Assembly: GCA_964528955.1 (NCBI GenBank)
Contig: CAZGVH010000001.1
Span: 3,606-40,341 of the forward strand
Length of the DNA: 36,736 bases
Direction: 5' to 3'
From: an uncultured Dehalococcoidales bacterium
Lineage (GTDB): Bacteria > Chloroflexota > Dehalococcoidia > Dehalococcoidales > UBA5627
In this document: piece by piece, positions 8,324 through 36,504 of the stretch
Numbering within the stretch: the first letter of the stretch is position 1
How the letters are laid out: every line of letters starts with the position of its first letter
The notes under the pieces: model-generated
The model's input: the letters and a program-made list of their open reading frames with translations, nothing else
Database searches by the model: none
Told to the model about the DNA's origin: nothing
Made by a program: the position numbers and the translations under genes

Positions 8324-8902
8324 TTATTTTTTGCCAACAATAAATCTGCGTAAAGCAGCTGTAATTATCAGTAATAATCCGCCTGCACAGCCAAGGTAAT
8401 AGCCAATAGTGAGCTTAGTTTCGACATTACTGATGTACGGGTCACCCATATCTAATCGGAATACACCATTCAAGGGAGCATTGTAAAATCCCTTAAGATT
8501 CATGCTAATAACTATAACGGCAGTTATAGCTACTATTATAAATGATATTCCGACACCGCCTACAAGTGCTGATGGTAGAGATACCCCTATCTTACCAATG
8601 CCGATTCTCTCTTTTTCATCGCTGCTGGCAAACATGCCGAAAAGAATAACTACCACACATACTGCCAAATATATCCACATGAAATTGTCAAACCAGCTCG
8701 GCATTATTTGATCGTAGCCAGCTATCCACGCAGAAAAATCAGACGGAACAAATGACTCAATGCCATAAGCATAGATATTGACAGCGGTAGTGCTCAATGC
8801 AACTATATAAGCTGTCCACCATGGTTGAAACCAGGCGTAAATAAATAACACAGCACCAATTAAAACCAATCCCCGGAATATCCAGGTCCTGATACCACCC
8901 AT
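8324..8902 (-). CDS. Putative membrane subunit of molybdoenzyme A (novel, His-free)
   Basis: 192 aa, about 5 TM helices. Conserved N-terminus RTWIFRGLVLIGAVLFIYAWFQPWW is shared with 27410..27973. Same position after the Fe-S subunit in both copies. No His residue in the sequence. Confidence 0.6.
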   Translation of the reverse strand: MGGIRTWIFRGLVLIGAVLFIYAWFQPWWTAYIVALSTTAVNIYAYGIESFVPSDFSAWIAGYDQIMPSWFDNFMWIYLAVCVVVILFGMFASSDEKERIGIGKIGVSLPSALVGGVGISFIIVAITAVIVISMNLKGFYNAPLNGVFRLDMGDPYISNVETKLTIGYYLGCAGGLLLIITAALRRFIVGKK

Positions 8903-8941
8903 ATCTAAATTATCTCCTTTCTCTAGAATTCTATCGGGTGT

Positions 8942-8984
8942 AGTGGGGGTGATGCTTCATTTTAAGCCTGTATTCACCCCCACT
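8942..8984 (-). other. Intra-operon hairpin between the Fe-S subunit and anchor genes (copy A)
   Basis: AGTGGGGGTGA (8942..8952) pairs with TCACCCCCACT (8974..8984), with a 21-nt loop. An analogous G-rich hairpin occurs at the same position in copy B. Confidence 0.5.
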
Positions 8985-9010
8985 GTCAAGATAACTGTTT
9001 GATTATATCA

Positions 9011-9820
9011 TCAGGATAATGCTATATCTTCTAAACTAACATCCTTCTCGGTGCTGATATCAGCTATAGTTTTTGATTTACCGCCGGCTTCTATTTTTAA
9101 CGAGAAAGTGCCCACAGCTAAACCCTCGAACCAGAAATCTCCGAAGTTATCAGTAGTGGCAGTAGCATTGCCGGCGCCAGAAAGAGTACAGGTTGCACCG
9201 ACGACAACTTCCTGTTTTGCCGGGTCGAATACTGTTCCCGCAATAAACCTCTTTGGGAGATTCAAATAATAAGTTCTCGGTTTGGTGCCAAATTCAGGAT
9301 TCATTACCTCAGCTTTAGCTATCTCGGCGCTAAATGCAGACTCGTCACCGAATCGCAAAGCTCCGTTATGGCAAGAATCGACGCATCTGGGTTCCGTAAT
9401 CGGCCATCCTCTGTCCCTGAGATGTGCGCAACTTGTGCATTTCTGTGCCAGTTTAAGGTTCTGATTCCAGTAAATAACATCATAAGGGCAGGCGTCTATA
9501 CATAACTGATGGCCGGCGCATTTCTGGGGGTCTATGATCACCATAGCGTCATCCCTCTTAGTAATAGCGCCCTCAGGGCAGGCTGTTATGCATGGAGCCT
9601 CGTCACAATGATGGCAGCGGCTCGGTACGTAGGCTACCTTGATATGAGGTATTTTCCCGCGTACGATTTCATTTTGCTTGTTCCAGAACTGCCCTGTTTC
9701 CGGTTGTGGTTTGGCGTAGGGCATCCAGTCATTACCGCAGTGTTCGTCCTTGCAAACAAGCTGGCAGGTATAGCATCCTATGCATTCTGCCGCATCATAA
9801 ACATAAACTTTCTTCGCCAT
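9011..9820 (-). CDS. Four-cluster Fe-S subunit of the DMSO-reductase-family enzyme (transhydroxylase BthL-like), copy A
   Basis: 269 aa. Cys groups are CIGCYTCQLVC, CHHCDEAPCITAC, CAGHQLCIDAC (His replaces the 2nd Cys) and CTSC...CVDSC. A C-terminal ~80-aa beta-sandwich-like domain (GTVFD...FGDFWFEGLAVGTFSLKIEAGG). The ATG overlaps the alpha stop (TAATG). Confidence 0.85.
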   Translation of the reverse strand: MAKKVYVYDAAECIGCYTCQLVCKDEHCGNDWMPYAKPQPETGQFWNKQNEIVRGKIPHIKVAYVPSRCHHCDEAPCITACPEGAITKRDDAMVIIDPQKCAGHQLCIDACPYDVIYWNQNLKLAQKCTSCAHLRDRGWPITEPRCVDSCHNGALRFGDESAFSAEIAKAEVMNPEFGTKPRTYYLNLPKRFIAGTVFDPAKQEVVVGATCTLSGAGNATATTDNFGDFWFEGLAVGTFSLKIEAGGKSKTIADISTEKDVSLEDIALS

Positions 9821-12663
9821 TATTTTCCTCCTTCTACCCAGCCCTTAAATAGCGGGCCATACTGAGGGTCGTAATCTCGTAAAAAGGCTTCTGGGAATTC
9901 ATTACGCCATTGATCCATCATTTCACCAGTTACTTTCTCGATCTCAGCCAGGTAATATTGACAAGCTAAACCGTAACCATGTTTGTGCATCGGCGGCATC
10001 ACATTGATACTGTTGGGGTTGCCGCCTCTGTTGATGTCCGGGCTAATCTGGTCGTCTCCTCCTGCTTTATCCATACGTACAGCTTGCTGCATTACTTTTT
10101 CAGTTACCATAGCACCGGCAAGAACGCTGCCTCTTTCGTTGTAGATTCTAACTATATCACCATTTTTTATCCCTCTGGCTGCAGCATCTACCGGATTAAT
10201 CCAGACCGGGGAATAGGCATACCCGTCAAAACCGATGATATATGGTCTGGCTTCCCTCGTCCAGGGGACATCAACGTACTGTGAGTGATGCAGCCAGTCG
10301 TTGGTCTGTGATACCACTCTGATAGGATAGGTCTTGGCTCTTTCTCCCCAGGGATCTTCATCATGAGTCCAACCTTCAGAAGCAGGGCCGCCGGGCACAT
10401 ACGTTGCAGTGGGTGCTCTTTCCTTATCGTCTGGGAACCAACCCATCAATGTCTGTGATTCGTATTCCATTTTACCGGATGGCGTGCTTAACGGATTTTT
10501 AGCTGGGTCTTCGTAGAATTTAAACGATGCGGGTGTACTTTCCACAGTCTTCGGGTCTCTGTCTACGGCATAATAGCCTTTTTCGTTTAAATCCTCCCAG
10601 CTGATTTTGTCTTTGATTGCCCCGCCATCATAAGCCGCCCTGGTTTGCGCCTCACTCCAATCTTTATAGTTGGTATAGCCGGGGATTATTTTATCGAGCA
10701 TTCCCAGCTTCTCGGCGACCAATAATGTCGCTTCCATGTCACTCTTGGCTTCTCCCTTCGGTAGAGATGCCACTTTGTTTATGTAAGTGATGCCGCATAC
10801 ATCGCCGCCGGTCTTCGGATCTAATAATTCATGCAGTGTAGCAATCGGCAATATTATATCCGAATATTTCATGCAGTCTTCCAACCACATGTTCATGGTT
10901 ATATGGCATTCCAGCTTCGGACTCTGGAAACCCTTACGCGTGTAGTTACCATAGGCGCGGCTACCTGTATAGCTTTGGCTGGTAGCCCAACACAAATGTA
11001 TTTCAGAAAATCCCGGTTCAGGATAGACACGTTTGGTGCCCTGGTCACTGGTAGGCCACCATTCGACAGGCGGGTTCAATAAGCAGTCAGCCCAGTCGTC
11101 TCTGGGCATAAACGGTTTGTCAAGGTCGGTAGCGCTGTACCTGACACCGGTTGCCGTTGAAAAGGCGGTTGTAATTACTGAATTACCTGCTACGCTGGCA
11201 AATCCTCCGGCGCTTCCTGAAGGCAAACTACCCGTTATTGAAGAAATCTGGTGAACGCCGGGTTTTCCGTATCCCTGCATTCCCAGCAGATAGAGCTGCA
11301 TTCTGTTTACGTTATCACCATAGATAGTTCTGCCGTTAGCACCGCCGCCTTTAACACCGAACAAAATCGATGTCGGTTTGGATGCCCATTCACGCGCCAG
11401 AGCTTTGATGGTATATTCAGGGATTAGGGTTATTTTTGAAGCCCAGGCAGGTGTCTTGGCAATCTTGTCCGAGGCAGTCCCTTTAACATATGCCTCCCAC
11501 TTATCAAAACCATAGGCATGGGTTGCTATATAGTCTTTATCATAGGTGTCTTCGTCGAACCAGACATAAGCGATAGCAGCCGCAAGAGCAGCATCCGTAT
11601 TAGGAACTATAGGTATGAATTTATTACAATGGATGCCTACCGTTTTATTTACTTCGGGACCGATGCTTACTACAGGTATCCCCACTTTTTTGTTCATCCA
11701 GTGTAAAGCTATAGGAGCAATCAATCCGCTATACCATGAGTGCGTTTCATTGCATGCCCAGCCGACCAGCATTTCGCAGTTGTTGGCATTGTCATGAAAC
11801 ACACCGCCGCTGGCTTCATAGTCATCTCCGATAACATATCTTCCGCCCAATTGTCCGCCTGAAGAGGTGGTAGCACGCCCGGAAGCGCTGGTAATATAGC
11901 CCTGATATTTGTCATAAGCATAATACTGCAACAAGCCTTCTTGACAACCGTGGCTACCGGGTAGACTGTGTCCTTCGGAATGGCCTCCGCTGTAGGTGGC
12001 GGTGAGAGCAGAGGGGCCATATTTGTCTCCTACTCTCTTAATTTCATTGGCTATTATAGTTGCAGCTTCGTCCCATGAAATTCTCTTGTATTTACTCTTA
12101 CCACGGTTCTGCGCATTGATTTTAGCCGGGTCGCCGCCGGGTTCCCAGTCAACTCTCTGTAAAGGATACAGAACTCTGTTGGGGGAATCGGTGCGTTTTC
12201 TACGGCATATGGTCTGAACACCGATCATGGATTTCAACATCGGGGTCCATGATTTACCGCGTGCCGTATATGTCCAGCCCTTGAGATCCGGATATTCTTT
12301 ATTGTAATGTATCGGCCTGATTCTTATTATTTTGCCATTCTTGACATCGGCATGTCCCGGGCAGTTGATAGCATTAAAAAATACTTCTTCCGGTTCAAGA
12401 GCTGGCGCAGTGGTTCCACCGCCGCCACCAGCTGTGATGGTCTTGGTAACTGTTTCACCGCCACCGCTAACTACAGTTTTTGTAACGACATTAGTTGTAG
12501 TTACAGTGGATGTTTTACCGCCACCGGTAGCCGAAAGTATTCCGGAACCGACAACACCGCCCACGATTACTGAACCGGTGCCAACCAGAAAATCTCTTCT
12601 GTTTATTACTACTTCTCCGGATTGGCTCTTGTCTTCTTTGTTAAGATCTTTTTCTTCTTTCAA
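9820..12663 (-). CDS. TAT-exported molybdopterin catalytic subunit, pyrogallol-phloroglucinol transhydroxylase (AthL)/resorcinol hydroxylase-like, copy A
   Basis: 947 aa. Twin-arginine motif NRRDFLVG. No N-terminal CxxCxxxC FS0 motif. Collinear blocks recalled from Pelobacter acidigallici AthL (YKRISWDEAATIIANEIKRVGDKYGPSA; IAYVWFDEDTYDKDYIATHAYGFDKWEAYV; GIKNGDIVRIYNERGSV). TTG start 7 nt after GGAG. Confidence 0.8.
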   Translation of the reverse strand: MKEEKDLNKEDKSQSGEVVINRRDFLVGTGSVIVGGVVGSGILSATGGGKTSTVTTTNVVTKTVVSGGGETVTKTITAGGGGGTTAPALEPEEVFFNAINCPGHADVKNGKIIRIRPIHYNKEYPDLKGWTYTARGKSWTPMLKSMIGVQTICRRKRTDSPNRVLYPLQRVDWEPGGDPAKINAQNRGKSKYKRISWDEAATIIANEIKRVGDKYGPSALTATYSGGHSEGHSLPGSHGCQEGLLQYYAYDKYQGYITSASGRATTSSGGQLGGRYVIGDDYEASGGVFHDNANNCEMLVGWACNETHSWYSGLIAPIALHWMNKKVGIPVVSIGPEVNKTVGIHCNKFIPIVPNTDAALAAAIAYVWFDEDTYDKDYIATHAYGFDKWEAYVKGTASDKIAKTPAWASKITLIPEYTIKALAREWASKPTSILFGVKGGGANGRTIYGDNVNRMQLYLLGMQGYGKPGVHQISSITGSLPSGSAGGFASVAGNSVITTAFSTATGVRYSATDLDKPFMPRDDWADCLLNPPVEWWPTSDQGTKRVYPEPGFSEIHLCWATSQSYTGSRAYGNYTRKGFQSPKLECHITMNMWLEDCMKYSDIILPIATLHELLDPKTGGDVCGITYINKVASLPKGEAKSDMEATLLVAEKLGMLDKIIPGYTNYKDWSEAQTRAAYDGGAIKDKISWEDLNEKGYYAVDRDPKTVESTPASFKFYEDPAKNPLSTPSGKMEYESQTLMGWFPDDKERAPTATYVPGGPASEGWTHDEDPWGERAKTYPIRVVSQTNDWLHHSQYVDVPWTREARPYIIGFDGYAYSPVWINPVDAAARGIKNGDIVRIYNERGSVLAGAMVTEKVMQQAVRMDKAGGDDQISPDINRGGNPNSINVMPPMHKHGYGLACQYYLAEIEKVTGEMMDQWRNEFPEAFLRDYDPQYGPLFKGWVEGGK

Positions 12664-12806
12664 TTTATTCTCCTTTCATTTAATTCCACCACAGGATATA
12701 AATAATCCGAATAGGCAATCACCTCCTTTTTTTAGTTGTACTTCAAACACCATTCACAAAACATCATTAACTGAAAAAAATCACTATTTAATTATGGTTT
12801 TATATA

Positions 12807-13595
12807 TTAATGTTCCACCGGATAATCTTTGAATGAAGCCTTTGTTGCCCCGCAAACAGGGCATCTCCAGTCGTCAGGGATATCTTCAAATGCAGTGCCG
12901 GCAGGTATACCTCCATCCGGGTCTCCTATTTTAGGGTCGTATACATAACCACAATCGGGGGTTTGGCAATAATATGCCGTCATACTGGATGATGAACCGG
13001 TAGTTGTTATGATGGTAGTAGTAAACGACAGTGCTTTGTTGTAATCCTGTTGAGAAAGGTATTGCGGCTGGTAACTTATTCCTTTATCACTTAACGCATT
13101 AACAAATATTCGCAGGTGATTATTGGAACCTTCTACCAGTTTATTAAAGGCTGTATCGATATTATCTTTATCGGTCTGTTCCAGGTATTTTTTAATATCG
13201 ACGATGTCGATTTCTTCCACCATGGCAGCTATTTCCAATGCCTTAGCCTCAGTTGAGGCGCTTTGTCCTTTAAGTTCGTTGTACAGCGCTTGCAGATCAC
13301 TATTATTGAATTTACCATAATCGTTATTTTCAGCTGGATTATCGATACCATAGGCATCAATGAGTTCTTTCACTATGTTCATATGAGCCTGTTCGCTGTT
13401 ACTGATAGTATCAAGGACATATGTGCCCCATTTATCAAACGAATATCTGTAAACATCCCGGGCTAATTTTTCCACTTCATAGATGTAGTTAAGTCCTTCC
13501 TTTTCTACATCCTTCAATTTTGACGAGCAGGCTGATATCGCGGCCGTTGAGAGTAAAGCAAGCGCCAAAGCTACATAATTTTTACCTTCAGCCAT
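12807..13595 (-). CDS. Lipoprotein fusion of a DUF2202 (ferritin-like) domain and a C-terminal rubredoxin
   Basis: The longest ORF runs to 13640, but GGGAGG lies 9 nt upstream of the ATG at 13595. Lipobox ...[12 protein letters not shown]2202-like [18 protein letters not shown]...SEQAHMNIV. Thr/Ser linker [13 protein letters not shown]. Rubredoxin knuckles [12 protein letters not shown] and [10 protein letters not shown]. Confidence 0.7.
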
Positions 13596-13651
13596 AGTTT
13601 GTATCCTCCCGTTAATAAATTTTTTAAAATAATACGGCACTTACCGATTCT

Positions 13652-14032
13652 TTAAGTTTTTATTAATTCATCTCTCAGTACGCATTTTAATTTAGCGATA
13701 AATAGCTGTTTATTAAACGGAGCTTTAATAAAATCATTGGCGCCAATGTCGAAAGCTTTTACCAATTTCCGGATATCGTTATCACTCGATATAAAAACTA
13801 TTGGTATATCATAATCATCACGTATATATCGTATCAGCTCGAATCCGGGCATATCAGTTAGTTGCTTGCCTGTTATGACAAGGCTAATATCCGGATTATT
13901 TTTTAAATTATCTAAACAGGCTTTACCCAAACAAGTAATAGACCTGTGCCACTCTGGTTGATATTTTGATAAAACATCACTTACTTCTTTTACAACTTCA
14001 TTATCAGCGTCGGCTATAATTATTTTTAACAA
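13652..14032 (-). CDS. Stand-alone receiver-fold protein lacking the phospho-acceptor Asp (pseudo-receiver), copy A
   Basis: 126 aa with CheY-like topology. The beta3 end reads SLVITG-KQLTDMPGFEL, so Gly55 (codon 13870..13868) occupies the Asp position. Lys is retained in DFIKAPF. Confidence 0.75.
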   Translation of the reverse strand: MLKIIIADADNEVVKEVSDVLSKYQPEWHRSITCLGKACLDNLKNNPDISLVITGKQLTDMPGFELIRYIRDDYDIPIVFISSDNDIRKLVKAFDIGANDFIKAPFNKQLFIAKLKCVLRDELIKT

Positions 14033-14226: not shown

Positions 14227-14239
14227 TCGATTTGATAAA

Positions 14240-14348: not shown

Positions 14349-15035
14349 CTAACTCAGCGGTTTGATAGCGTAGTATCCTAATCCTGATTTCGAAAAGATA
14401 ATTTGTGGATTTTCCGGATCGATTTCAATTTTTTTACGCAGGTGATTTATGTGCACTTTTAGGCTGTTGATAGCGCCTTCATAATAATCGCCCCAGACTA
14501 TTTCACTTAAAGTATTTAACGGTACTATATTTGGCGAGTTGTTAATCAGTGCGCGCAGAATTTCGTTTTCTGTTCCTGTTAAGTTAATTGTTACATTGTT
14601 TCTGTTAATCTCGCGGCGGTCATAATCATATATTAACGAACCCCAAAACAACTTGTCTTCTCCACTGGCACGCTTGTAAAACTTCAGTAAATTTTTTACT
14701 CTTGCTATGAGCTCCATTTGACGGAATGGTTTTGTAACATAGTCATTGGCACCGAGTTCCAGCGCCTGTACTACCATTGTCTCACTGACATCAGCTGTTA
14801 GTATTAATATAGGTATTTGTGAAAACAGGCGGATTTGCTTGACTACGTCGAGCCCATCTATATCCGGAAGACCTATATCGAGAATAACGATATCAGGGGC
14901 TTGAGTTTCCACCAATTCGACCCCTTCTTTACCCCACCCCGAAGATATTATTTCAATATCAGGCCATACCGTTATAAAAGTATAACCGACGGACTTGACG
15001 ATTTTGCTATCATCTTCAATAATCAGTATTTTCAT
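14349..15035 (-). CDS. OmpR/PhoB-family response regulator, copy A
   Basis: 228 aa. Canonical receiver (ILIIEDD, VILDIGLPDIDG, ILTA, TKPF) plus a winged-helix C-terminal domain. The start overlaps the HK stop by 4 nt. Confidence 0.9.
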   Translation of the reverse strand: MKILIIEDDSKIVKSVGYTFITVWPDIEIISSGWGKEGVELVETQAPDIVILDIGLPDIDGLDVVKQIRLFSQIPILILTADVSETMVVQALELGANDYVTKPFRQMELIARVKNLLKFYKRASGEDKLFWGSLIYDYDRREINRNNVTINLTGTENEILRALINNSPNIVPLNTLSEIVWGDYYEGAINSLKVHINHLRKKIEIDPENPQIIFSKSGLGYYAIKPLS

Positions 15036-20987: not shown

Positions 20988-21014
20988 AGTTTACCCCCAG
21001 CAAGGAAACTAAAA

Positions 21015-21740: not shown

Positions 21741-21911
21741 ATTATATTTACCTGATATTTAATTTTATGAATGTATAGGAATATACATGTGTATTATAGA
21801 ATATAGTCACTAAATATAATAGTTCTATTAGATTGTGGTGTCTGCAAAATTGAATTTTAAATGTAAGTAACAATTAATAGACACTATTACAGAATAATAA
21901 TATTTTTATAA

Positions 21912-25679: not shown

Positions 25680-25758
25680 TTTATTTCCCCCCAATTTTTA
25701 TTTTAAACAAAGCCTTAGGGCTCAGTTGAACAAGCAATTTAATTTATGACTATTAACT

Positions 25759-28040: not shown

Positions 28041-28073
28041 ATACCATATTGCTCTCTTATTTAATTAAGATAG

Positions 28074-28886: not shown

Positions 28887-31813
28887 TATTCTCCTCCTTC
28901 CTCTAACCAGGCTTCGAGTCTTCTACCTGCAGCCGGGTCGTATGCCCTCTTAAAGGCATCAGGGTAATCTCTCCTCCACTCGTCCATCATCTCGCCAGTG
29001 ACTTTTTCAATCTCTACAAGGTAACCGGTAACATATAATCCCATAGCGTTAGGAGAAATGCCGTTGGGACAGATAGTGTTGTTCTCACCGCCCCTGTCAA
29101 GTACACCTGGAATGATGTAATCTGTCTGGGCGCCGTGTTCCATTGCAACTACACCTTGCATAGTTCTCTCCCAGACTTTAGCCGCACCGAGTATAGCACC
29201 ACGGTCATTGAATATCTTAATAATGTCGCCGTCCTTGATACCTCTTGCCTCGGCATCAGCCGGGTTCATCTGTACTGGCTCATACCAGTATCCATCCCAG
29301 CCTTCTATCTTGGACAATTCTCTGAGCCAGGGGATATCGTCATGCTGAGAGTGATAGCGCCATTTCGGAGTGTTGGAAATCATCTGCAGAGGATAAGTCT
29401 GAGCTTTCTTGCCGGTACGGTATTCATCATAGAAATACCCTTCACCACCGGGAATCCAATGTGCCAGCGGAGGCCTGTCTTTATCATCGGGGAAGTTTTC
29501 AGCTAATCCGGTACTCCAGAACTCAAGAAGACCGGTTGGCGTTGCCAGAGGATTCTTTACCGGGTCATCATAGAATTTCTGGGAAGCCGGTGTCCTCTTA
29601 GCTGCATCTGGATGTAATCCTATTATATAATAGCCCCTTTCGTTCAATTCTTCCCAGGTTACTACATCGGTCATACCGCTTGTATCGTAAGCTTCTTTAA
29701 CCCACTCGTCAATAGTTTTTCCGCCGGTCCATTTATCGTAAAAGTCCAGTTTTTTAGCCAGTTCACCGACTATTTCATAATCGGACATGGATTCTCCGAT
29801 ACTCTTAATAGCCGGCTTTTCCAGACACCATACACCGTAATCCTCACTTGAAGTATTCATGTCGTATTCTTCAAGTTTAGTATTAACCGGCAAGACGATG
29901 TCGGAATAAAAGCAGGTGTCCTGCCACCACTGGTGTTGAGTTACCACGCATTCTAGAATATCCTCTTGATGAGCCCTGAATCTGTTGTTGCCATCATCAG
30001 TACTCTCAGTGTTGCTGGCGCCTTCCCACCACATGAATCTCACAGGAGACTTGTCCTGCCATGGGTATTCGAACTGCTGGAACTGGCGAGTCCTGTTGCC
30101 ACGGGTACCGCCGCCATACCAGGTTACCTTGGGATCACCCTCTCTCCAGGCAAAGCACCTTGAGATATCGGGGGAATGCATTAACGGTCTTTCTTCCACC
30201 TTAGGTATTGATAATCCTTCGGCCTTCATCAGCTCCGGGAAACGTCCTGACATGACTCCTTCTTTAGCCATCGGGCTTACCTTGTCATAAGAAGGGGACT
30301 TGGCAAAACTAGGTGTTCTAAGCGGGTTGGTGCACTGGTGTACACCAGGTTTACCCCATCCCTGCATACCCAGCAGATACCATTCCATTCTCATGGCTTC
30401 AGTTGAATATCCGCCGCGGCAGAGGCCGCCGCCGTGAGTCTGGGCAAATGATGCTCTACTATGTTTACCCCAGTATCTTGCCAGGGCTTTAATGGTCCAC
30501 TCAGGGGTTCCGCAAATTGAGGCAGCCCATGCGGGGGTTTTAGGAATACCATCCTCATCACCCATAACATAAGCCTGCCATTTATCAAAACCATGTACAT
30601 GTGTGGCTACATACTCTTTATCATAGGTATCTTCGGTAATCCAGATATAAGCTATTGCCAGCATCATACATGGATCGGAGTTCGGATAAATAGTTATCCA
30701 TTTATCTGCCCAGTAACCGGTGCCTGTATTACAATCAGGGCTGATAAATATACATGGAATACCAAGCTTTTTAACCCAGTAAGTACTGTAACCTCTTCTC
30801 ATTCCATCATTTTTACACCAGGCTTTGGTTACATTATCGCATCCCCAGTAAAGCATAAGCTCGCAGTTGGCAGAGATGTCTCCCCAAAAATTAGCATCCG
30901 ACTCTTCACCGAACATTTCAATTGCATTAACATGCTTGGCACCCCAGGCTGTTCCTTCCCAGCTATATGGGCTACGCATGGCTTCTGTATAATGTTGGCC
31001 GTATGTAGCTTGTGACCAGTAATGCAGGAATGCGCTGGTAGTATAATGATAGCCATGAATAGTCTTCAATTCACCATGAGCCGGGCAGAATGTACAAAGA
31101 GCTGCCGGACCGTATTTATCAGCAATTCTCTTCATTTCACCGGATACTATTGTTGTAGCTTCCTCCCATGAAATCCTCTTATACTTGCTGATACCGCGAT
31201 TTTGGGCATTTCTTTTTGCCGGATCACCACCGGGTTCCCAGTCAACTCTCTTTAACGGATATAATATCCTGCGGGGTGAGTAGGTACGTCTCTTATATCC
31301 GGCACCCAGCGGCGCCAAACATGATTTTTTGTGTGAGGTCCATGTCTGTCCGCGGGCTTCCCATGTCCATGGCTGGAAATTGGGGTCCTCATCAAAATGA
31401 ATTGGCCTGACTCTGACTATTTTGCCGTTTTTAACATCTACACATGCAGGCGACTCTAGGGCTTTAATAACTGTCTCTTCCGGCTCTAATGCCGGTTCGA
31501 TTGAACCACCGCCGCCACCTGTCGTTACTGTTTTGGTCTCGGTAACTGTAACCGCACCAGTTCCACCTACTGTTTTAGTCTCGGTTACCGTAGCACCTGA
31601 ACCGCCAACAGTTGTTGTAACTGTTTTTTCAACTGTTTTTGTAGTTTCAACGGTTTTAGTGGTTTCTCCTCCGCCGCAACCGGATAATAGTCCAGCCCCA
31701 ATAGCACCACCGACAACTACCGTTCCGGCACCTACAAGAAAATCTCTTCTTGAGACTTCACCGGATTGTTTCTTTTCTTCTCTCACTGATGTTTTTTCTT
31801 CTTCGTTTTTCAA
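28886..31813 (-). CDS. TAT-exported lipoprotein molybdopterin catalytic subunit, transhydroxylase (AthL)-like, copy B
   Basis: 975 aa. SRRDFLVG twin-arginine motif. Lipobox LLSGC (Cys46, codon 31678..31676). About 65-aa T/V/G/E/K linker. No FS0 Cys motif. YSWEGTAWG matches the segment I recall as carrying the Mo-ligand Ser175 in P. acidigallici AthL (DSWEGWHWG). TTG start after GGAG. Confidence 0.8.
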   Translation of the reverse strand: MKNEEEKTSVREEKKQSGEVSRRDFLVGAGTVVVGGAIGAGLLSGCGGGETTKTVETTKTVEKTVTTTVGGSGATVTETKTVGGTGAVTVTETKTVTTGGGGGSIEPALEPEETVIKALESPACVDVKNGKIVRVRPIHFDEDPNFQPWTWEARGQTWTSHKKSCLAPLGAGYKRRTYSPRRILYPLKRVDWEPGGDPAKRNAQNRGISKYKRISWEEATTIVSGEMKRIADKYGPAALCTFCPAHGELKTIHGYHYTTSAFLHYWSQATYGQHYTEAMRSPYSWEGTAWGAKHVNAIEMFGEESDANFWGDISANCELMLYWGCDNVTKAWCKNDGMRRGYSTYWVKKLGIPCIFISPDCNTGTGYWADKWITIYPNSDPCMMLAIAYIWITEDTYDKEYVATHVHGFDKWQAYVMGDEDGIPKTPAWAASICGTPEWTIKALARYWGKHSRASFAQTHGGGLCRGGYSTEAMRMEWYLLGMQGWGKPGVHQCTNPLRTPSFAKSPSYDKVSPMAKEGVMSGRFPELMKAEGLSIPKVEERPLMHSPDISRCFAWREGDPKVTWYGGGTRGNRTRQFQQFEYPWQDKSPVRFMWWEGASNTESTDDGNNRFRAHQEDILECVVTQHQWWQDTCFYSDIVLPVNTKLEEYDMNTSSEDYGVWCLEKPAIKSIGESMSDYEIVGELAKKLDFYDKWTGGKTIDEWVKEAYDTSGMTDVVTWEELNERGYYIIGLHPDAAKRTPASQKFYDDPVKNPLATPTGLLEFWSTGLAENFPDDKDRPPLAHWIPGGEGYFYDEYRTGKKAQTYPLQMISNTPKWRYHSQHDDIPWLRELSKIEGWDGYWYEPVQMNPADAEARGIKDGDIIKIFNDRGAILGAAKVWERTMQGVVAMEHGAQTDYIIPGVLDRGGENNTICPNGISPNAMGLYVTGYLVEIEKVTGEMMDEWRRDYPDAFKRAYDPAAGRRLEAWLEEGGE

Positions 31814-31890
31814 TTATTTCTCCTTTCATAGATTCTCGTTAAGATGCAATAAAATTCTGTATAGACATCACCCCCTTTTTAAATAAACTA

Positions 31891-32277
31891 TTAATTAGCT
31901 TTTGAATCCCAGGTTCTTCTTCTTACTATCGCATTCAATTTGGCTGCAAATATATTTGCATTGAATGGAACAGTGAAATAATCGTTAGCTCCATTGTCGA
32001 AGGCTTTAATCAACATGTTTATATCTTCATCTTCTGAAACGAGGATAATTGGCAAATCGGAATCGTCTCGTATATTCATAAGCAAGTCCAATCCACACAT
32101 ATCTGACAGATTAAATCCTAATATTAATGCGTCCGGACAATTACCGTTTTTTAATACTTTCAGGCACTGCTTTCCGGAGCCGATTACAGATAACTGACAG
32201 TCAGGGAGATATTGATTTATAGCTATTCGTATATTATCCGCAACTTCTATGTTTTTCTCTGCAATAACAATATTCAT
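31891..32277 (-). CDS. Stand-alone receiver-fold protein lacking the phospho-acceptor Asp (pseudo-receiver), copy B
   Basis: 128 aa. The beta3 end reads ALILG-FNLSDMCGLDLL, so Gly54 (codon 32118..32116) occupies the Asp position. The acidic pocket is degenerate (IAEKN). The conserved Lys is replaced (DYFTVPF). Confidence 0.75.
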   Translation of the reverse strand: MNIVIAEKNIEVADNIRIAINQYLPDCQLSVIGSGKQCLKVLKNGNCPDALILGFNLSDMCGLDLLMNIRDDSDLPIILVSEDEDINMLIKAFDNGANDYFTVPFNANIFAAKLNAIVRRRTWDSKAN

Positions 32278-32319
32278 TTACTTATTAAATTAAAATCAGT
32301 GATTTCCTTATATAGTATG

Positions 32320-32353
32320 GTAAAGTATCGGAATTAAAATAGACGTTAAAAAA
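32320..32353 (-). promoter_or_regulatory. Conserved intergenic element upstream of the receiver/molybdoenzyme operon (copy B)
   Basis: Counterpart of 14195..14226 (see that feature). It lies 43-76 nt upstream of the receiver ATG. Confidence 0.4.
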
Positions 32354-32519
32354 AAAGTGGATTGTTAAAATTTATTAATAAATGAATGAAAAATTAGAAA
32401 TGCGTTAATAAATACGTAAATATGATAGCGAATATCAATAATTCTCTAAAGAGGTAGTAATTTTTCTGGTTAAAATGGCTAAAATATGTAATTACAAAAA
32501 CATTATAAGACGGGGCCAA

Positions 32520-33200
32520 TTAATCGGATTTTAATATGTATCCGACACCTGCCTTTGTGTGAATAAAAACAGGGTTCCGCGGATCCTTTTCAATTTTATT
32601 GCGTAAGCGGTGAATATATACCCTAATCGATTCGCAGGTACTGGGATCGTTATAATCCCAAACTGCTTCAGCCAGGTTGGAGATTGGAATTACCTTCTCT
32701 ACATTTCTTAAGAGCTGGTACATTATAATACCTTCAGTTTGTGTAAGGTTAATTTTCTTTTTATCCACGAAAAGTACTTTTAAATCAGGTTTTAGCATTA
32801 GAGATTTATATTGGATCGCATTTCCACCACCGGGAATGTGTTGCCTTCTTAATATAGCATTCATTCTCGATATAAGCTCAAGTTGTCTGAAAGGTTTGAT
32901 GATATAATCATCCGCACCGGATTCTAATCCCATGATAATGTCACTTTCTTTGTCACGGGCAGTTAAAATTATTACCGATACCATAGAGAACAGTCTGATT
33001 TTTTTAAGTACGTCAAAGCCATCCATATCAGGCAATCCAATATCCAGTATGACAATATCCGGATTTTCATCAGCTATGATTGACAAGCCTTTTTCACCTT
33101 TATCGGTAGATAAAATAACAGCATCAGGCCAACGTATCCGGAGAGCAAGCGAAACAATGGATACGATATCAGCATTATCTTCAATAACAACTATTTTCAT
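32520..33200 (-). CDS. OmpR/PhoB-family response regulator, copy B
   Basis: 226 aa. IVVIEDN, VILDIGLPDMDG, ILTA, IKPF. Winged-helix C-terminus (VYIHRLRNKIE...GVGYIL). Confidence 0.9.
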   Translation of the reverse strand: MKIVVIEDNADIVSIVSLALRIRWPDAVILSTDKGEKGLSIIADENPDIVILDIGLPDMDGFDVLKKIRLFSMVSVIILTARDKESDIIMGLESGADDYIIKPFRQLELISRMNAILRRQHIPGGGNAIQYKSLMLKPDLKVLFVDKKKINLTQTEGIIMYQLLRNVEKVIPISNLAEAVWDYNDPSTCESIRVYIHRLRNKIEKDPRNPVFIHTKAGVGYILKSD

Positions 33201-33228
33201 ATGATTATTTTGATTTATTATAAATATT

Positions 33229-36200
33229 TTATATGGGTATAGAAAAACTAACAGTCGTTCCTTTTCCTAATGTACTTTTTACCCATATATCGCCGCCATG
33301 TAGATTAACATATGTTTTACATATAGCCAAACCCAATCCGATACTTTCATAGCGTTCATTAGTACTTGCATAAGGACGATACGGTTCAAAAAGACTACGT
33401 AAAGTATCATCTGACATACCACAACCATTGTCTTGAATTTCAACTATAATAAAATTATCATGCCTGTGTACTTTAATTATAATAGATTGACTATATGAAG
33501 TATATTTATACGCGTTATCCAATAAATTACACATTACTCTGATAATTTTTTGTTCATCAACGAAAACGAGTGGTAAATCTGATTCGGCAATAAGTTCTAC
33601 CTTAATATTTTTTGAACTTGCAGTCGGTTTAGTTGACTCTACTACACTTTGAATAAGGTCGTAAATCGATATTATCTCTTTCTTAATATCCAGCATATTC
33701 AGCTTTCCTTTATAAATATCAAAATGTTCACTGATTCGCTGTTTTAATAATAGAGCATTATTTTGAATTTGAGTCTGTAAATCTTTTCCTGTTTTATCTT
33801 CTTGAATTTGAGATAATATATCACTGGCGGCAACTATAGAAGTCAATGGAGTTTTAAAATCATGCATCAAGGCATTTAAATAATCTGTTTGTTGTTTTAA
33901 CTGCTTCTCTAACTCAAGATTGGATTTTTCAAGTTGCTTGCTGGCATCTTCCAGTTGATTGGATTTATTAACCAACTGCCCGGTTCTTTCTACAATTTGC
34001 ATTTCAAGCTCTTGAGCCTGCAATTGTAAACTGCGTGTCCTAAGCACTATTACTGCAATCACCGCTATTATTGCTAATAATGTTGAAATTAGTATAAACC
34101 ACCATTCCTGCCAAAAGGGAGGGGAAATAGTTATTTGAAGAGAAGCCCCTTCTTCATTCCAAATATTATCTTTATTACTTGCTATTACTTTAAAAATATA
34201 TTTTCCGCTTTCTATGTTGGTATACTTTGCAAAATTATCGCTGGGTCCGCAAAACTGCCAGTTGTTATCGAATCCTTCCAGCATATAAGCATATTTATCT
34301 TCACGTTGGGTGGTATAGTCAAGTGCGACAAAATTGATTAAAAATGAGTTATCGGAATGTTTAAGATTAACTTCCTTTATTTCTTCAAGTGGTTTTTCAA
34401 ATGATATCTGGTTTCCGTTAATCAGTGAAAATCCATTTATTACTACTGGCGGAATGATATTACTGGCTATTATTTGTTTAGGATCAAATGAAATAAGCCC
34501 ATTAGTAGTACCAATGAATATAAGACCTTCTTCATTCTTGCTTATTGATTTACTGTAATAAATGTTACTTCTTAACCCATGATCAATTCCGTAAGAAATA
34601 ACATGTTTCGATTCCGGTAATAATTTACACAGTGCATATTCGGTAAAAAACCAGATATCCCCTTCACTATCACCAGTGATGCCGATTATATTATCGTCTG
34701 GCAGGCCATTCTCTTTGGTATACAATTCGTGGCTGCCAATCTCAGGCACAAAAGCAATTAACCCGTTGTTTGTGCCAAACCACAACGTTTTACTATCATC
34801 TTCATAAATACTTTCGACCTGGAGGTTTAAAAAGGCGTCCTGTTTGGAATCTTGAAAATAATGGATGAATTCACCTGTGTTCTCATCATACCTATCAAGT
34901 CCTTTATCTGTGCCTATCCAAAGGCTACCATCTTCTGATATGAAAACTACATTGATATTGTCGCTGTTGATACTGGTTAAATCCTCAGGATCATTATGAT
35001 ACTGTATAAATTTATTTTCATTATAATTAAAACTACAAAGGCCTTTATCAGTACCAATCCATAATAAATCCTCTTCTATACTATTGACAATAGAAAATAT
35101 CCAGCCATCGGTAATGCTATTTGGATTTCCTTCTTCATAAGTATAATTCATATATTCACCGGTCTCTAAGTCTATTCTCACCAGTCCAATATAATCGGTA
35201 CCCACCCATAAGGTACCAGTTTGATCGATATAAACAGCGTCGGTGATTGCATTTCTTATACTGCTGATTGAATCGTAACTCAGATAGCGTTCCACTACGT
35301 TATCCTTGTAATTGAACCAGATAATGTTTGTACTCGTTCCAAGTATGCTAATATTACCCAAGATATCGATAGCCCTGATACCAACATCCTTAATTAAATT
35401 ATTGTCATAGTACTTAAAGTATTGCTTGTCCGGATCGATATAGTATATACCTGACATTGTTCCAAACCAGAGAATTCCCCATTCATCTTCATAGATCGAC
35501 CTGGTAACGTTACTCCCGATACTGGTAGAGTCGGTTGGATTATGTGTGAAAGTGGTGAAACCCCCGATTTCTTTATTAAATACATTTAAACCATCATCTG
35601 TTCCTATCCATATCGTATTTTTACTATCTACATAGACCACTCTTATTATATCGTTGCTAATACTATTGAGATCATCTGGATCATGAATGTAGCTGTTAAA
35701 ATTTTCCGTTTCTTTATCAAAGGAGTTTAATCCATACTCGGTTCCTACCCACAATAATCCATCGTTATCCCCATATATTGACCATACAACGTTATTACTG
35801 ATACTGGCAGGATCGTTTTGATTATGAGTATAAGCCGTAAAAACTCCCGTTTCTCTGTCCAGTTTATTAAGTCCTTCATTTGTTCCGATCCAGAGTGTCC
35901 CCTGTTTATCTTCATATATAGACCTGACTATATCATTACTGATACTGGCAGGATCGTTTTGATTATGAGTATAAGCTGTAAAAACTCCTGTTTCTCTATC
36001 CAGAGTGTTCAAACCCTGCGTTGTTCCAAACCATAAAGTATTCTGGCTATCTTCAAATACCGACCAGATAATATTACTGCTTATGCTGGATGGATTTTCA
36101 GCGTCGTTGGTATAGGTAGTGACATTACCCGTCTTAATATCCACAGAATTCAGACCGTATTTTGTGCCTATCCATAATATGCCCTGGCTGTCTTTATAAA

Positions 36201-36504
36201 TTGATCTTATAGTATCATCACTAAGGCCTTCTAATTCAATTGATTCAAGTCCGCTGCTTTTATATAACCCGCCTCTAGTTCCAAACCACATATACCCATA
36301 GTCATCTTTTGATATTGAAAATACAGCATTGTCAGAAATCAATGCGCTTGAACTCAATTTACTGAAAACTATTTTTTGTTCGGATGAATCCGTACTTGCC
36401 TTGATAATGTTAATGGGTGATTGAAATATACAGCAGAATATAATTAATACACATAATATTAATCCGCATAGTCTACATGTCATCGTTTGAAATATATTAT
36501 TCAT
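33229..36504 (-). CDS. Sensor histidine kinase with a large extracytoplasmic beta-propeller/Y_Y_Y domain, copy B
   Basis: 1091 aa. Same architecture as 15032..18271. H-box HDFKTPL, N-box LLDNAYKYT, G-boxes DNGCGM and GLGLAI. Confidence 0.9.
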   Translation of the reverse strand: MNNIFQTMTCRLCGLILCVLIIFCCIFQSPINIIKASTDSSEQKIVFSKLSSSALISDNAVFSISKDDYGYMWFGTRGGLYKSSGLESIELEGLSDDTIRSIYKDSQGILWIGTKYGLNSVDIKTGNVTTYTNDAENPSSISSNIIWSVFEDSQNTLWFGTTQGLNTLDRETGVFTAYTHNQNDPASISNDIVRSIYEDKQGTLWIGTNEGLNKLDRETGVFTAYTHNQNDPASISNNVVWSIYGDNDGLLWVGTEYGLNSFDKETENFNSYIHDPDDLNSISNDIIRVVYVDSKNTIWIGTDDGLNVFNKEIGGFTTFTHNPTDSTSIGSNVTRSIYEDEWGILWFGTMSGIYYIDPDKQYFKYYDNNLIKDVGIRAIDILGNISILGTSTNIIWFNYKDNVVERYLSYDSISSIRNAITDAVYIDQTGTLWVGTDYIGLVRIDLETGEYMNYTYEEGNPNSITDGWIFSIVNSIEEDLLWIGTDKGLCSFNYNENKFIQYHNDPEDLTSINSDNINVVFISEDGSLWIGTDKGLDRYDENTGEFIHYFQDSKQDAFLNLQVESIYEDDSKTLWFGTNNGLIAFVPEIGSHELYTKENGLPDDNIIGITGDSEGDIWFFTEYALCKLLPESKHVISYGIDHGLRSNIYYSKSISKNEEGLIFIGTTNGLISFDPKQIIASNIIPPVVINGFSLINGNQISFEKPLEEIKEVNLKHSDNSFLINFVALDYTTQREDKYAYMLEGFDNNWQFCGPSDNFAKYTNIESGKYIFKVIASNKDNIWNEEGASLQITISPPFWQEWWFILISTLLAIIAVIAVIVLRTRSLQLQAQELEMQIVERTGQLVNKSNQLEDASKQLEKSNLELEKQLKQQTDYLNALMHDFKTPLTSIVAASDILSQIQEDKTGKDLQTQIQNNALLLKQRISEHFDIYKGKLNMLDIKKEIISIYDLIQSVVESTKPTASSKNIKVELIAESDLPLVFVDEQKIIRVMCNLLDNAYKYTSYSQSIIIKVHRHDNFIIVEIQDNGCGMSDDTLRSLFEPYRPYASTNERYESIGLGLAICKTYVNLHGGDIWVKSTLGKGTTVSFSIPI
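35794..36003 (-). repeat. Near-identical 69-bp intragenic repeat pair inside HK copy B
   Basis: 35794..35862 and 35935..36003 differ at 3 of 69 positions and are offset by 141 nt (47 codons, one propeller blade). Both encode ETGVFTAYTHNQNDPASISN. Confidence 0.85.

Follow-up and report, generated by a model that had tools for sequence, protein, structure and literature searches.

Why would a bacterium of the Dehalococcoidales carry two versions of one regulated molybdoenzyme cassette, and what would such an enzyme do? The question is raised by a 36,736-nucleotide stretch of DNA from an uncultured Dehalococcoidales bacterium (GCA_964528955.1, contig CAZGVH010000001.1, positions 3,606 to 40,341 of the forward strand), hereafter called the window. 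Six gene families occur there twice, in the same order and on the minus strand: a sensor histidine kinase (HK), a response regulator (RR), a stand-alone receiver, a molybdoenzyme large (alpha) subunit, an iron-sulfur (Fe-S, beta) subunit and a membrane protein. Our preferred answer, held tentatively and at somewhat less than an even chance, is that the product of each cassette is a molybdoenzyme of the transhydroxylase/resorcinol hydroxylase (PgtL/RhL) branch of the dimethyl sulfoxide (DMSO) reductase family that is induced separately, faces outward and is coupled to electron transfer, most likely a reductase of hydroxylated organic compounds.

The window contains 41 open reading frames (ORFs) of at least 100 aa, and an unbroken minus-strand run of genes from 36504 to 10 holds all those listed by a first-pass annotation made from the letters alone. 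That annotation had described the doubled gene order; each ORF was found where it had been placed, and Pfam confirmed the domains. In BLASTP comparisons of copy A with copy B, identities were 47% (HK), 43% (RR), 42% (receiver), 42% (alpha), 65% (beta) and 35% (membrane protein), with 43% for a pair of DUF4405 proteins nearby, and all E-values were 2e-32 or lower, well past chance. The homology and divergence claimed for the pairs are therefore borne out, although their range (35-65%) reaches lower than the roughly 45-65% first estimated. The DNA of the two copies aligns in patches only (64-71% identity), as had also been noted. Two sister assemblies, L090 (JGI 3300045917) and L091 (GCA_030153525.1), show the genes from cassette B to the start of the copy A kinase in identical order; since two independent assemblies share this layout, the arrangement is real and not an assembly artefact. 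An Fe-S subunit 96-99% identical to that of the window is annotated from a Dehalococcoidales metagenome-assembled genome (MAG). The alpha stop and beta start overlap by 1 nt in both copies.

The four enzyme subunits, for which export by the twin-arginine translocation (Tat) pathway is discussed below, are as follows.

28886..31813, minus strand: Mo_B, Tat-exported large subunit of the bis-molybdopterin guanine dinucleotide (bis-MGD) type (Pfam, PDB search, alignment, AlphaFold2 and Foldseek)
9820..12663, minus strand: Mo_A, Tat-exported large subunit lacking a lipobox Cys (Pfam, PDB search, alignment)
28074..28886, minus strand: FeS_B, beta subunit with the 16 Cys of four [4Fe-4S] groups and a C-terminal barrel of the transhydroxylase type
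9011..9820, minus strand: FeS_A, beta subunit whose group III has His instead of its second Cys (CAGHQLC)

Mo_B (975 aa) and Mo_A (947 aa) both carry the Pfam domains AhtL-like_1st, Molybdopterin and Molydop_binding, all above the gathering cut-off; AhtL-like_1st (PF21423) scored 45.5 and 36.0 bits in the two proteins against a cut-off of 27. The best solved relative of both is the large subunit of pyrogallol-phloroglucinol transhydroxylase (TH; PDB 4V4C, chain A), with E-values of 6e-111 for Mo_B and 1e-77 for Mo_A. TH leads the S- or N-oxide reductases by 375 to 235 bits for Mo_B and by 265 to 188 bits for Mo_A. Reductases of DMSO and of trimethylamine N-oxide (TMAO) trail 4V4C in this search at E 1e-68 or weaker, and acetylene hydratase (2E7Z) is a weak match only (E 9e-7 and 1.3e-8); membership of the catechol dehydroxylase clade was considered and rejected on the distance between these last values and those for TH. 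FeS_B in turn matches 4V4C chain B with E 4.5e-48 over residues 4-268 of its 270, the C-terminal barrel included.

Because 4V4C is the best match for alpha and beta alike, the placement in the transhydroxylase/resorcinol hydroxylase branch made by the first-pass annotation is right, and on sequence grounds we assign both alphas to the PgtL/RhL branch. That annotation had also proposed placing the large subunits against characterised clades by hidden Markov model and phylogeny. In an NCBIfam scan no model, and none for a characterised clade, reached its cut-off for the alphas, the betas, the membrane proteins, the DUF4405 proteins or the U32-like proteins; the orthologous groups used below come from a neighbour-joining tree only.

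Fold comparison agrees for copy B. The AlphaFold model of Mo_B (predicted local distance difference test, pLDDT, 79; residues 1-107 disordered) retrieved 176 PDB chains at E<=1e-3 with Foldseek, the best 50 of the 176 all being DMSO reductase family enzymes. The top match was again 4V4C chain A (E 2.6e-67, TM-score 0.83), followed by MtsZ, DMSO reductase and TorA (TM-scores 0.84-0.88). By sequence and by fold, the next-closest families are thus reductases that abstract an oxygen atom from DMSO, TMAO or methionine sulfoxide, and the best partial NCBIfam matches of the alphas, below cut-off, are to the bisC/DmsA/TorA families.

The TM-scores to these reductases, level with that to TH, and the partial matches would also suit exported reductases of S-oxides, N-oxides or oxyanions (DMSO, TMAO, methionine sulfoxide, selenate) whose likeness to TH reflects ancestry only. 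A Ser-type Mo ligand fits the same idea, as does the DMSO/TMAO respiration proposed for marine Dehalococcoidia (PMC4959651). We nevertheless regard it as improbable. The bit scores put both alphas clearly nearer to TH, a beta subunit ending in a barrel domain is TH-specific, enzymes of the DorA/TorA type being without such a beta, and no NCBIfam model for an S- or N-oxide reductase came near its cut-off. The diversified substrate pocket described below is a further argument against it.

Messerschmidt et al. (2004) reportedly assigned catalytic or substrate-binding roles in TH to His144, Asp174, Ser175 and Tyr404, together with Arg153 and Tyr560; the identities of all six fit the 4V4C numbering. 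The alignment in which these positions were compared set TH (residues 14-871, reconstructed from the PDB-search alignment to 4V4C) against its 120 closest homologues in the database, a further 106 taken from genome loci, and the E. coli enzymes DmsA and TorA; RhL and DbhL sequences lay outside all alignments and trees. Residues 172-178 of TH, N-P-D174-S175-W176-E-G, read S-P-Y-S-W-E-G in Mo_B (Asp174 to Tyr) and R-A-T-T-S-S-G in Mo_A (Asp174 to Thr, Ser175 to Thr, Trp176 to Ser). His144 is kept in both copies and Ser175 in copy B only. Both copies lack Arg153, the Tyr404 motif and the loop with Tyr560. This loop occurs in 14 of 231 sequences, namely TH itself plus 13 homologues from genomes with 48-59% identity to TH, as against 35% for Mo_B and 31% for Mo_A. 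At the position of the Mo ligand Ser175, Mo_A has a Thr followed by Ser-Ser; Thr is found there in 11 of 71 exported homologues.

The beta subunits (269 and 270 aa) each show a Pfam Fer4_11 dicluster region and a C-terminal CarboxypepD_reg domain. FeS_B has 16 Cys as cluster ligands, and FeS_A has 15 Cys and one His; in several homologues the variable FeS_A position is His, Gln, Ser, Ala, Arg or Met. The beta subunits of TH and its 13 closest relatives have lost four Cys ligands, equivalent to one [4Fe-4S] site (FS3). The idea that a four-cluster beta is specific to exported enzymes was examined and rejected, as most Tat-less TH-like enzymes keep four sites and the loss is confined to the narrow true-TH clade.

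The export claimed by the first-pass annotation is supported by twin-arginine motifs at both alpha N-termini (SRRDFLVGAG and NRRDFLVGTG). In Mo_B the SRRDFL motif is followed by an LSGC lipobox and a Thr-rich linker of about 70 aa, and in both alphas a Thr/Val/Gly-rich tether precedes the catalytic domain. The homologues of the TH clade are Tat-less and about 840-875 aa long. The beta subunit has no signal peptide, so that its export would be by Tat hitch-hiking with the alpha subunit. The lipobox Cys lost from Mo_A is kept in P0103, its 82%-identical orthologue. The Mo_A orthologue of a sister assembly (33,441-bp contig) is split between two called genes, P0004 (293 aa) and P0002 (658 aa), perhaps by a frameshift or a gap, or because the gene has become a pseudogene in that strain.

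Taken together, these features bear on whether either enzyme could be a bona fide pyrogallol-phloroglucinol transhydroxylase of fermentative aromatic catabolism. The best solved match of both subunits is that enzyme, and earlier genome papers assigned Dehalococcoidia homologues in this way (PMC3971608, PMC4959651). Against this stand the Tat signals of both enzymes and the lipobox of copy B, the missing Asp174, Arg153, Tyr404 and rarely present Tyr560 loop, the cluster site retained in beta but lost in TH, the low identity to TH relative to true clade members, and the conserved membrane partners described below. The window alphas are thus not transhydroxylase orthologues, and we consider this reading very improbable indeed.

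The branch is very large and varied: a wider search returned 2,617 family members at E<=1e-20 among 8,000 candidates scored, the best 49% identical to Mo_B, from groups that include Dehalococcoidia, Anaerolineales, Actinomycetota, Desulfobacterota and Sporomusa. A genome commonly has more than one paralogue, and tandem arrays of up to five are common too. Among 157 Tat-less homologues (about 870 aa), His144 is conserved in 100%, Asp174 in 96%, Ser175 in 100%, Trp176 in 99% and Glu177 in 100%. Among 71 Tat-positive homologues (about 960 aa), Asp174 is found in 46% and Trp176 in 56%, and position 175 is Ser in 85% and Thr in 15%; 49 of the 71 have a lipobox Cys, and their tether has a median length of about 69 aa with 29% Thr. 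As aligned, the exported proteins therefore form a subset with a diversified pocket motif. This diversification among exported paralogues, together with the expansion of TH-like genes within genomes (the sampled arrays being mostly Tat-less), suggests many organic substrates and not a few oxides.

Arrays of Tat-less alpha-beta pairs with the canonical motif, up to five per roughly 20 kb, were seen in Dehalococcoidales and Actinomycetota MAGs (L058, L038, L074, L078, L053). Since most of these arrayed pairs keep four Fe-S sites, they are probably redox enzymes and not transhydroxylases.

Within the neighbour-joining tree the two window alphas fall into different orthologous groups. Mo_A is 82% identical to P0103 from another metagenome, 71-72% identical to three others and 45% identical to Mo_B, and Mo_B has no relative above about 50% among the sampled sequences. 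Consistent with the old duplication first suspected, this points to an ancient duplication, or to cassettes brought together from different family members, and the two copies presumably act on different substrates.

The proteins that could anchor and supply such an enzyme are encoded close by. In the lines below, TM stands for transmembrane, and L086 is a relative's locus that carries a Mo_A orthologue.

27410..27973, minus strand: mem_B, four-TM orphan of 187 aa bearing a beta-sheet on the extracytoplasmic side
8324..8902, minus strand: mem_A, orphan 192-aa four-TM protein, paralogue of mem_B (35% identical)
23046..23720, minus strand: DUF4405_B, four-TM protein with paired H-x13-H (Pfam, sequence)
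7227..7892, minus strand: DUF4405_A, predicted dihaem cytochrome b (Pfam, sequence)
7939..8184, minus strand: small membrane ORF of 81 aa between mem_A and DUF4405_A, kept in L086 (14506-14751)
6837..7217, minus strand: DUF7670-like small membrane protein adjoining DUF4405, also in L086
21015..21740, minus strand: [2Fe-2S] subunit resembling NuoE/HoxE, with an additional Fer4 region at the N-terminus
19290..20987, minus strand: NuoF/HoxF-like NADH- and FMN-binding subunit
18668..19297, minus strand: HoxU/NuoG-N-terminal-like Fe-S subunit

The 81-aa membrane ORF had been overlooked in the first-pass list, which was to that extent incomplete. For mem_A and mem_B, four TM helices are predicted, and neither Pfam nor NCBIfam gave a match. 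A profile search of 1.84 billion representatives found 223 members of this four-TM family at E<=1e-3; they share no conserved His or Cys, hence no cofactor ligands. In the AlphaFold model (pLDDT 87.7) four helices form a bundle that carries a beta-sheet outside the membrane. The protein is probably a docking or anchor subunit, comparable in role to RdhB. Foldseek gave a topology-level likeness to TARP and claudin proteins (TM-scores 0.45-0.5, E about 1e-3), and at that level of match we make no claim of homology to them.

DUF4405 (PF14358) was recognized in its two copies with E-values of 2.8e-20 and 5.9e-19. An H-x13-H pattern lies in two TM helices of each, from which both are predicted to be dihaem cytochromes b. 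A purified DUF4405 member binds haem b, and the family has been proposed to be a transmembrane electron carrier like MsrQ and PepSY proteins (PMC11334425). The HoxE/F/U-like trio corresponds to a diaphorase module with no catalytic partner within the window; such modules adjoin TH-like genes at L015 and L048 too. The cassettes thus show traits of complex iron-sulfur molybdoenzymes, namely a Tat-exported catalytic subunit and a four-cluster beta, and a quinol-oxidizing membrane subunit of the NrfD/PsrC, DmsC or NarI type had no Pfam or NCBIfam match in the window, where the four-TM protein and DUF4405 are encoded instead.

A four-cluster beta and a cytochrome b would serve electron flow in either direction. 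Electrons could run inward, through beta and DUF4405, from an RhL-like, water-dependent anaerobic hydroxylase at the outer face, with the product then imported and degraded. RhL, one of the two characterised family members, does carry out redox-coupled hydroxylation (PMC10100899). The cytoplasmic U32-like, B12-dependent radical SAM and aldo/keto reductase proteins encoded nearby could process the imported product, and a major facilitator superfamily (MFS) transporter gene stands beside the orthologous cassette in L086. But PgtL and RhL are both listed as cytoplasmic (PMC10100899), the Asp174-Ser-Trp-Glu motif of nearly all Tat-less members is lost in both window enzymes, and reducing NAD+ with electrons from phenol hydroxylation would be thermodynamically unfavourable. 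Nor is a high-potential acceptor system visible in the window. We judge such a hydroxylase unlikely, although it is the foremost rival of our reading.

Reduction at the outer face is favoured instead, because the next-closest enzymes are all reductases that abstract an oxygen atom, because DUF4405/MsrQ-type cytochromes are tied to outward electron delivery, because the lineage is strictly anaerobic with exported reductases and their cognate regulators as its hallmark, and because of the same want of an evident acceptor.

Which of the neighbouring genes belong to the system was assessed by phmmer comparison of the window proteins with the ORFs of relatives' loci and by Pfam annotation of the contigs. 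The further genes concerned are the following.

25759..27297, minus strand: rSAM_B, B12-binding radical SAM protein, 512 aa, TIGR04190-like (below cut-off)
4654..6786, minus strand: rSAM_A, B12-binding radical SAM protein, 710 aa, with a C-terminal PqqD (peptide-binding) domain
24639..25694, minus strand: U32-like protein 2, 53% identical to U32-like protein 1 (homologues adjacent in L005, L017, L085)
21912..22976, minus strand: U32-like protein 1
23765..24583, minus strand: aldo/keto reductase (Pfam)
12807..13640, minus strand: fusion of DUF2202 (ferritin-like) and rubredoxin, with a lipoprotein-type signal (..AISAC..) and a Thr-rich linker
3219..4670, minus strand: NlpC/P60 surface protein with InlB B-repeat, syntenic in L086

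Two loci of one Dehalococcoidales MAG show the cassette with a kinase bearing PAS domains: L005 has PAS-HK, OmpR RR, two pseudo-receivers (pREC), alpha, beta, the four-TM protein (mem), an rSAM_A homologue and one U32 gene, and L017 has PAS-HK, OmpR RR, pREC, alpha, beta, mem and two U32 genes. L086 begins with MFS, PAS/GAF-HK, OmpR RR, pREC, alpha, beta and mem, and continues with the 81-aa ORF, DUF4405, DUF7670, NlpC/P60 and a 710-aa rSAM-PqqD gene, colinear with copy A down to 3219. In L087 a divergent pair of PAS-HK and GerE RR genes precedes pREC, alpha, beta, mem, FMN_bind and DUF4405; the FMN_bind gene (14581-15123), of the flavinylation type, lies between the four-TM and DUF4405 genes. 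The Mo_B-clade locus L085 comprises GAF-HK, GerE RR, alpha, beta, mem, U32 and B12-rSAM. Its contig also holds two more DMSO reductase family clusters (1-2859 and 19647-22862), one of them DmsABC-like with a NarJ-type chaperone. L001 and L002 have DUF4405, alpha and beta, and L003 and L004, from other Chloroflexota orders, a Tat-less Mo_B-clade alpha, beta and rSAM_B. Upstream of a further Mo_A orthologue (72%), L048 carries IS3-type transposase remnants and a GNAT gene (7891-9134) where the two-component system (TCS) and pREC genes would be expected.

The conserved core therefore consists of alpha, beta and mem, optionally preceded by pREC, and of a DUF4405 gene close at hand; it is often accompanied by U32-like and B12-rSAM genes, and the type of sensor kinase is interchangeable, pREC-alpha-beta-mem recurring in L005, L017, L086 and L087 as the sensors change. 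The first-pass annotation had treated all six families as one cassette. Four of them, pREC, alpha, beta and mem, do co-occur in relatives and DUF4405 now joins them, but the propeller kinase of the window is not a conserved part, as related cassettes use cytoplasmic PAS/GAF kinases and sometimes GerE regulators.

The same annotation had each copy followed by a DUF4405 protein and a B12-type radical SAM gene. Both are present after each copy, but the two radical SAM proteins are not orthologous (28% identity over 200 aa, distinct subfamilies), and DUF4405_B lies about 3.7 kb downstream of mem_B, the order after the membrane protein gene of copy B being rSAM, U32-like, aldo/keto reductase and then DUF4405. 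From DUF4405_B up to HK_A the space is filled by the second U32-like gene and the HoxE/F/U-like module. It is thus conceivable, though rather unlikely, that these neighbours are coincidental, the unit being HK-RR-pREC-alpha-beta-mem with another electron donor, and DUF4405, rSAM, U32 and HoxEFU serving other pathways such as cofactor or quinone modification or the maturation of ribosomally synthesized and post-translationally modified peptides (RiPPs). Besides the non-orthologous radical SAM proteins, the RiPP-type PqqD domain of rSAM_A and the three genes between DUF4405_B and the enzyme genes are in keeping with this idea, and synteny with L086 may reflect close relatedness (82% alpha identity). 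DUF4405, however, directly adjoins alpha-beta in the more distant L001 and L002 (about 50% or less to Mo_A) and in L087 (50% to Mo_B). Homologues of rSAM_B adjoin Mo_B-clade alpha-beta genes in L003, L004 and L085, in other Chloroflexota orders and even beside Tat-less enzymes (L003, L004), and lie near a canonical-motif pair in L027. Homologues of rSAM_A stand beside related cassettes in L005, L048 and L086, and U32-like genes recur in L005, L017 and L085.

U32 family members have been proposed to be O2-independent hydroxylases. The Pfam match of the two window proteins to this family (PF01136) is weak, at 32.5 and 27.9 bits against a gathering cut-off of 22.4. The DUF2202-rubredoxin fusion, apparently an exported rubredoxin, is an insertion specific to copy A between pREC_A and Mo_A and is absent from the orthologous L086; its presence had been noted before, although its longest ORF starts at 13640 and not at 13595. 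The NlpC/P60 protein is a doubtful member of the cassette.

Regulation of the cassettes would lie with the following genes.

33229..36504, minus strand: HK_B, sensor histidine kinase, TM helices 9-27 and 803-821 (Pfam, TM scan, H-box, HATPase)
15032..18271, minus strand: HK_A, propeller/Y_Y_Y sensor kinase, TM helices 8-26 and 796-814
32520..33200, minus strand: RR_B, OmpR family regulator with an intact phospho-acceptor Asp (CheY pattern E-D-D-T-K)
14349..15035, minus strand: RR_A, OmpR family regulator with a 4-nt overlap with HK_A
31891..32277, minus strand: pREC_B, free-standing pseudo-receiver with Asp57 replaced by Gly and Lys109 by Val
13652..14032, minus strand: pREC_A, pseudo-receiver, Asp57 to Gly, Lys109 to Ala
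32278..32519, minus strand: AT-rich intergenic region (23% GC) between the TCS genes and the enzyme operon (composition)

Both kinases (about 1,080 aa) contain six to seven Reg_prop repeats, Y_Y_Y, HisKA and HATPase_c domains (Pfam). Their outside domain of about 770 aa, a double beta-propeller with Y_Y_Y flanked by the two TM helices, matches the periplasmic domain of BT4663 (4A2L/4A2M, E 4.5e-99) and 3V9F (E 7e-89). This homology and position uphold, at this locus, the extracytoplasmic sensor first proposed. The known ligands of the Bacteroides propeller sensors are glycan fragments. HK_A and HK_B are 49-56% identical in their sensor halves and 34% identical in the cytoplasmic kinase core; the lower likeness of the cores fits an insulation of two parallel phosphotransfer pathways after duplication, and the sensors may bind related ligands.

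The response regulators (226 and 228 aa) combine Response_reg and Trans_reg_C, so that the classical two-component features are present: H-box His and ATPase in the kinase, Asp and DNA-binding domain in the regulator. The pseudo-receivers (126 and 128 aa) consist of a Response_reg domain only. Across seven members of this family, the two of the window and five orthologues at other loci, alignment with CheY shows Gly or Ser at Asp57 in all seven and loss of Lys109 in six, which bears out the Asp-less receiver first described.

An AT-rich gap of 242 bp (B) or 316 bp (A) separates the HK-RR genes from pREC-alpha-beta-mem, and in copy B this gap is the presumed regulated promoter. Repeat and consensus scans of the RR-pREC gaps gave just short AT-rich matches and no convincing regulator site, and promoter-like sites numbered 75 against 68 +/- 8 in shuffled sequence, that is, background level.

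With these parts we can outline how the system might work. The alpha-beta pair would be exported folded via Tat, held at the outer face of the membrane and docked on the four-TM protein. The DUF4405 cytochrome b, perhaps supplied by the HoxEFU-like NADH module, would convey electrons across the membrane, and these would pass along the beta clusters to Mo, where a hydroxylated or oxo-organic substrate would be reduced outside, for example dehydroxylated; a (poly)phenol or a related plant or humic compound seems most plausible. The propeller kinase would sense an external ligand and its OmpR partner switch on the pREC-alpha-beta-mem operon, with the Asp-less receiver modulating this switch or assisting maturation. 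The first-pass annotation had envisaged substrate-inducible, outward-facing modules acting by hydroxyl transfer, dehydroxylation or respiration. The module is retained in our proposal; hydroxyl transfer is disfavoured, because Asp174, Tyr404, Arg153 and the Tyr560 loop are missing and beta keeps its full electron wire.

Several points weigh against the reductase we propose. The two characterised family members are a non-redox transferase (PgtL) and an oxidative hydroxylase (RhL), neither of them a reductase, and the direction of electron flow is one that we infer. An outward flow of electrons from cytoplasmic NADH would in itself conserve no energy. The HoxEFU-like genes may be neighbours with no link to the enzyme, and DUF4405_B lies at the distance from the enzyme genes given above. 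The closest solved relatives of the sensor bind glycans and not phenols. With Thr at the position of the Mo-ligand Ser, the chemistry of Mo_A, and even its activity, is uncertain. Finally, the grouping of Mo_A and Mo_B rests on a tree whose sampling is biased towards the nearest matches of Mo_B.

A broader proposal follows, which we offer as doubtful. In anoxic soils, peat and sediments, those Dehalococcoidales that do not dehalogenate, together with their relatives, might possess a class of quinone-independent, outward-facing respiratory reductases that has gone unrecognized. Through reductive dehydroxylation it would let them respire constituents of a (poly)phenolic, tannin or humic nature. 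Its members would be Tat-exported and usually lipid-tethered TH-like molybdoenzymes with a diversified pocket motif, every one served by a sensor and regulator of its own, a pseudo-receiver, a docking protein of claudin-like form and a DUF4405 cytochrome b, and as a whole they would be the molybdenum equivalent of the rdhA arsenal.

Base composition and RNA scans gave some additional observations. The alpha and beta genes of both copies have a GC content of 0.45-0.48, and of 0.43-0.47 at third codon positions (GC3), and the regulator genes 0.32-0.39 and 0.26-0.38; the higher GC of the enzyme genes could reflect the codon bias of high expression or a separate origin of this module. An Rfam scan of the window returned no molybdenum cofactor (Moco) or cobalamin riboswitch, its sole match being a T-box leader outside the cassettes (RF00230, 99.6 bits, 1528-1801, minus strand), upstream of a gene for a TrpB-like pyridoxal phosphate enzyme (10-1398, minus strand). 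The GC3 of that gene is 0.69, compared with 0.26-0.47 across all cassette genes, and may indicate foreign origin or another expression class. A tRNA scan of the window found none.

Dehalococcoidia and their Chloroflexota relatives count among the commonest bacteria of anoxic sediments, aquifers and peat, and how they conserve energy beyond organohalide respiration is largely unknown. Genes of this kind have been seen in the lineage before. Hug et al. (2013) described 'pyrogallol hydroxytransferase' genes in Chloroflexi/Dehalococcoidia and read them as pyrogallol fermentation (PMC3971608), and Wasmund et al. (2016) read such genes as hydroxylation or transhydroxylation of aromatic electron donors (PMC4959651); the accessible text of the two papers makes no mention of a Tat signal for them. 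Our analysis indicates that a sizeable subset is exported and membrane-tethered, has a rebuilt catalytic motif and lies beside a transmembrane cytochrome, with regulators alongside in most cassettes examined. A widely repeated annotation as aromatic catabolism is thereby reframed. It gives way to a concrete candidate, open to test, for a system of surface catabolism or of respiration other than with halides, in an abundant and poorly understood group, and the defined gene set (alpha, beta, four-TM protein, DUF4405 and pseudo-receiver) is what makes the question testable. If these enzymes are indeed terminal reductases or surface hydroxylases acting on hydroxylated compounds of plant or humic origin, they would open a new anaerobic route of phenolic carbon turnover, bearing on the 'enzyme latch' of peat carbon storage, and would extend the chemistry of the PgtL/RhL branch beyond its two characterised members.

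The first-pass annotation knew of no characterised system of this composition, and none turned up in a full-text literature search covering the family, resorcinol hydroxylase, DUF4405 and Dehalococcoidia molybdoenzymes, in which subscription journals are thinly covered, so that absence is not proof. Since the component types are all known and homologous genes had already been noticed in the lineage, the cassette represents an uncharacterised, exported form of the PgtL/RhL branch, accompanied by a defined set of accessory genes, and not a categorically new system.

Its closest characterised relative, TH of Pelobacter acidigallici (PgtL/AthL-BthL), shares the AhtL-like N-terminal domain, the lack of an FS0 cluster, His144, a Ser-type Mo ligand and the beta barrel. 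TH itself, however, is cytoplasmic and net non-redox, whereas the window enzymes have Tat motifs and Thr-rich tethers (copy B also a lipobox), membrane partners and regulators. For resorcinol hydroxylase RhLS of Azoarcus anaerobius, we know of no TCS, pREC or DUF4405 context. RhLS and the related 3,5-dihydroxybenzoate hydroxylase belong to the same RhL/PgtL family, and RhLS, made up of alpha and beta subunits, acts on a phenol in a redox-coupled way (PMC10100899).

The type III members of the DMSO reductase family (DorA, TorA, BisC, MtsZ) share the Ser-ligated bis-MGD fold, and the periplasmic ones are Tat-exported reductases; they differ in their lower sequence similarity, and none of their NCBIfam models reached its cut-off here. 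These type III enzymes are monomeric, have no known four-cluster beta and receive electrons from c-type cytochromes. MsrPQ and the flavinylation-associated DUF4405/PepSY cytochromes resemble the proposed arrangement in that a dihaem-b membrane protein has been proposed to carry electrons across the membrane to an extracytosolic enzyme. Their known partners, however, are MsrP of the sulfite oxidase family or flavinylated proteins and not an alpha-beta pair of the DMSO reductase family, and no apbE gene was found in the window. The Bacteroides hybrid sensors (BT4663; 4A2L/4A2M, 3V9F) have a homologous periplasmic double propeller with Y_Y_Y, but the window kinases are classical, with a separate OmpR regulator instead of an AraC fusion, and occur in Chloroflexota beside a molybdoenzyme instead of a polysaccharide utilisation locus.

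In working logic, a parallel is offered by the catechol dehydroxylases of Eggerthella and Gordonibacter (Dadh, Hcdh, Cadh), Tat-exported bis-MGD enzymes with an Fe-S partner and a membrane anchor that are induced by their own substrates and act on phenolic hydroxyls (PMC7028382). They nevertheless form a separate clade nearest acetylene hydratase, explicitly apart from the transhydroxylase branch (PMC7028382).

In architecture, the likeness is to the rdhAB loci of Dehalococcoidia with their TCS or MarR regulators, which share the lineage, a Tat-exported enzyme, a small membrane protein devoid of cofactors, one pair of regulators for each paralogue and a diversified family of paralogues. The cytoplasmic PAS/GAF kinases of the related TH-like cassettes add to this likeness. 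The catalytic protein of rdhAB is a corrinoid enzyme, whereas that of the window is a molybdopterin one, and the four-TM, claudin/TARP-like topology differs from that of RdhB. By this analogy of gene arrangement, the cassettes can be regarded as a molybdenum counterpart of the rdhAB-plus-regulator loci.

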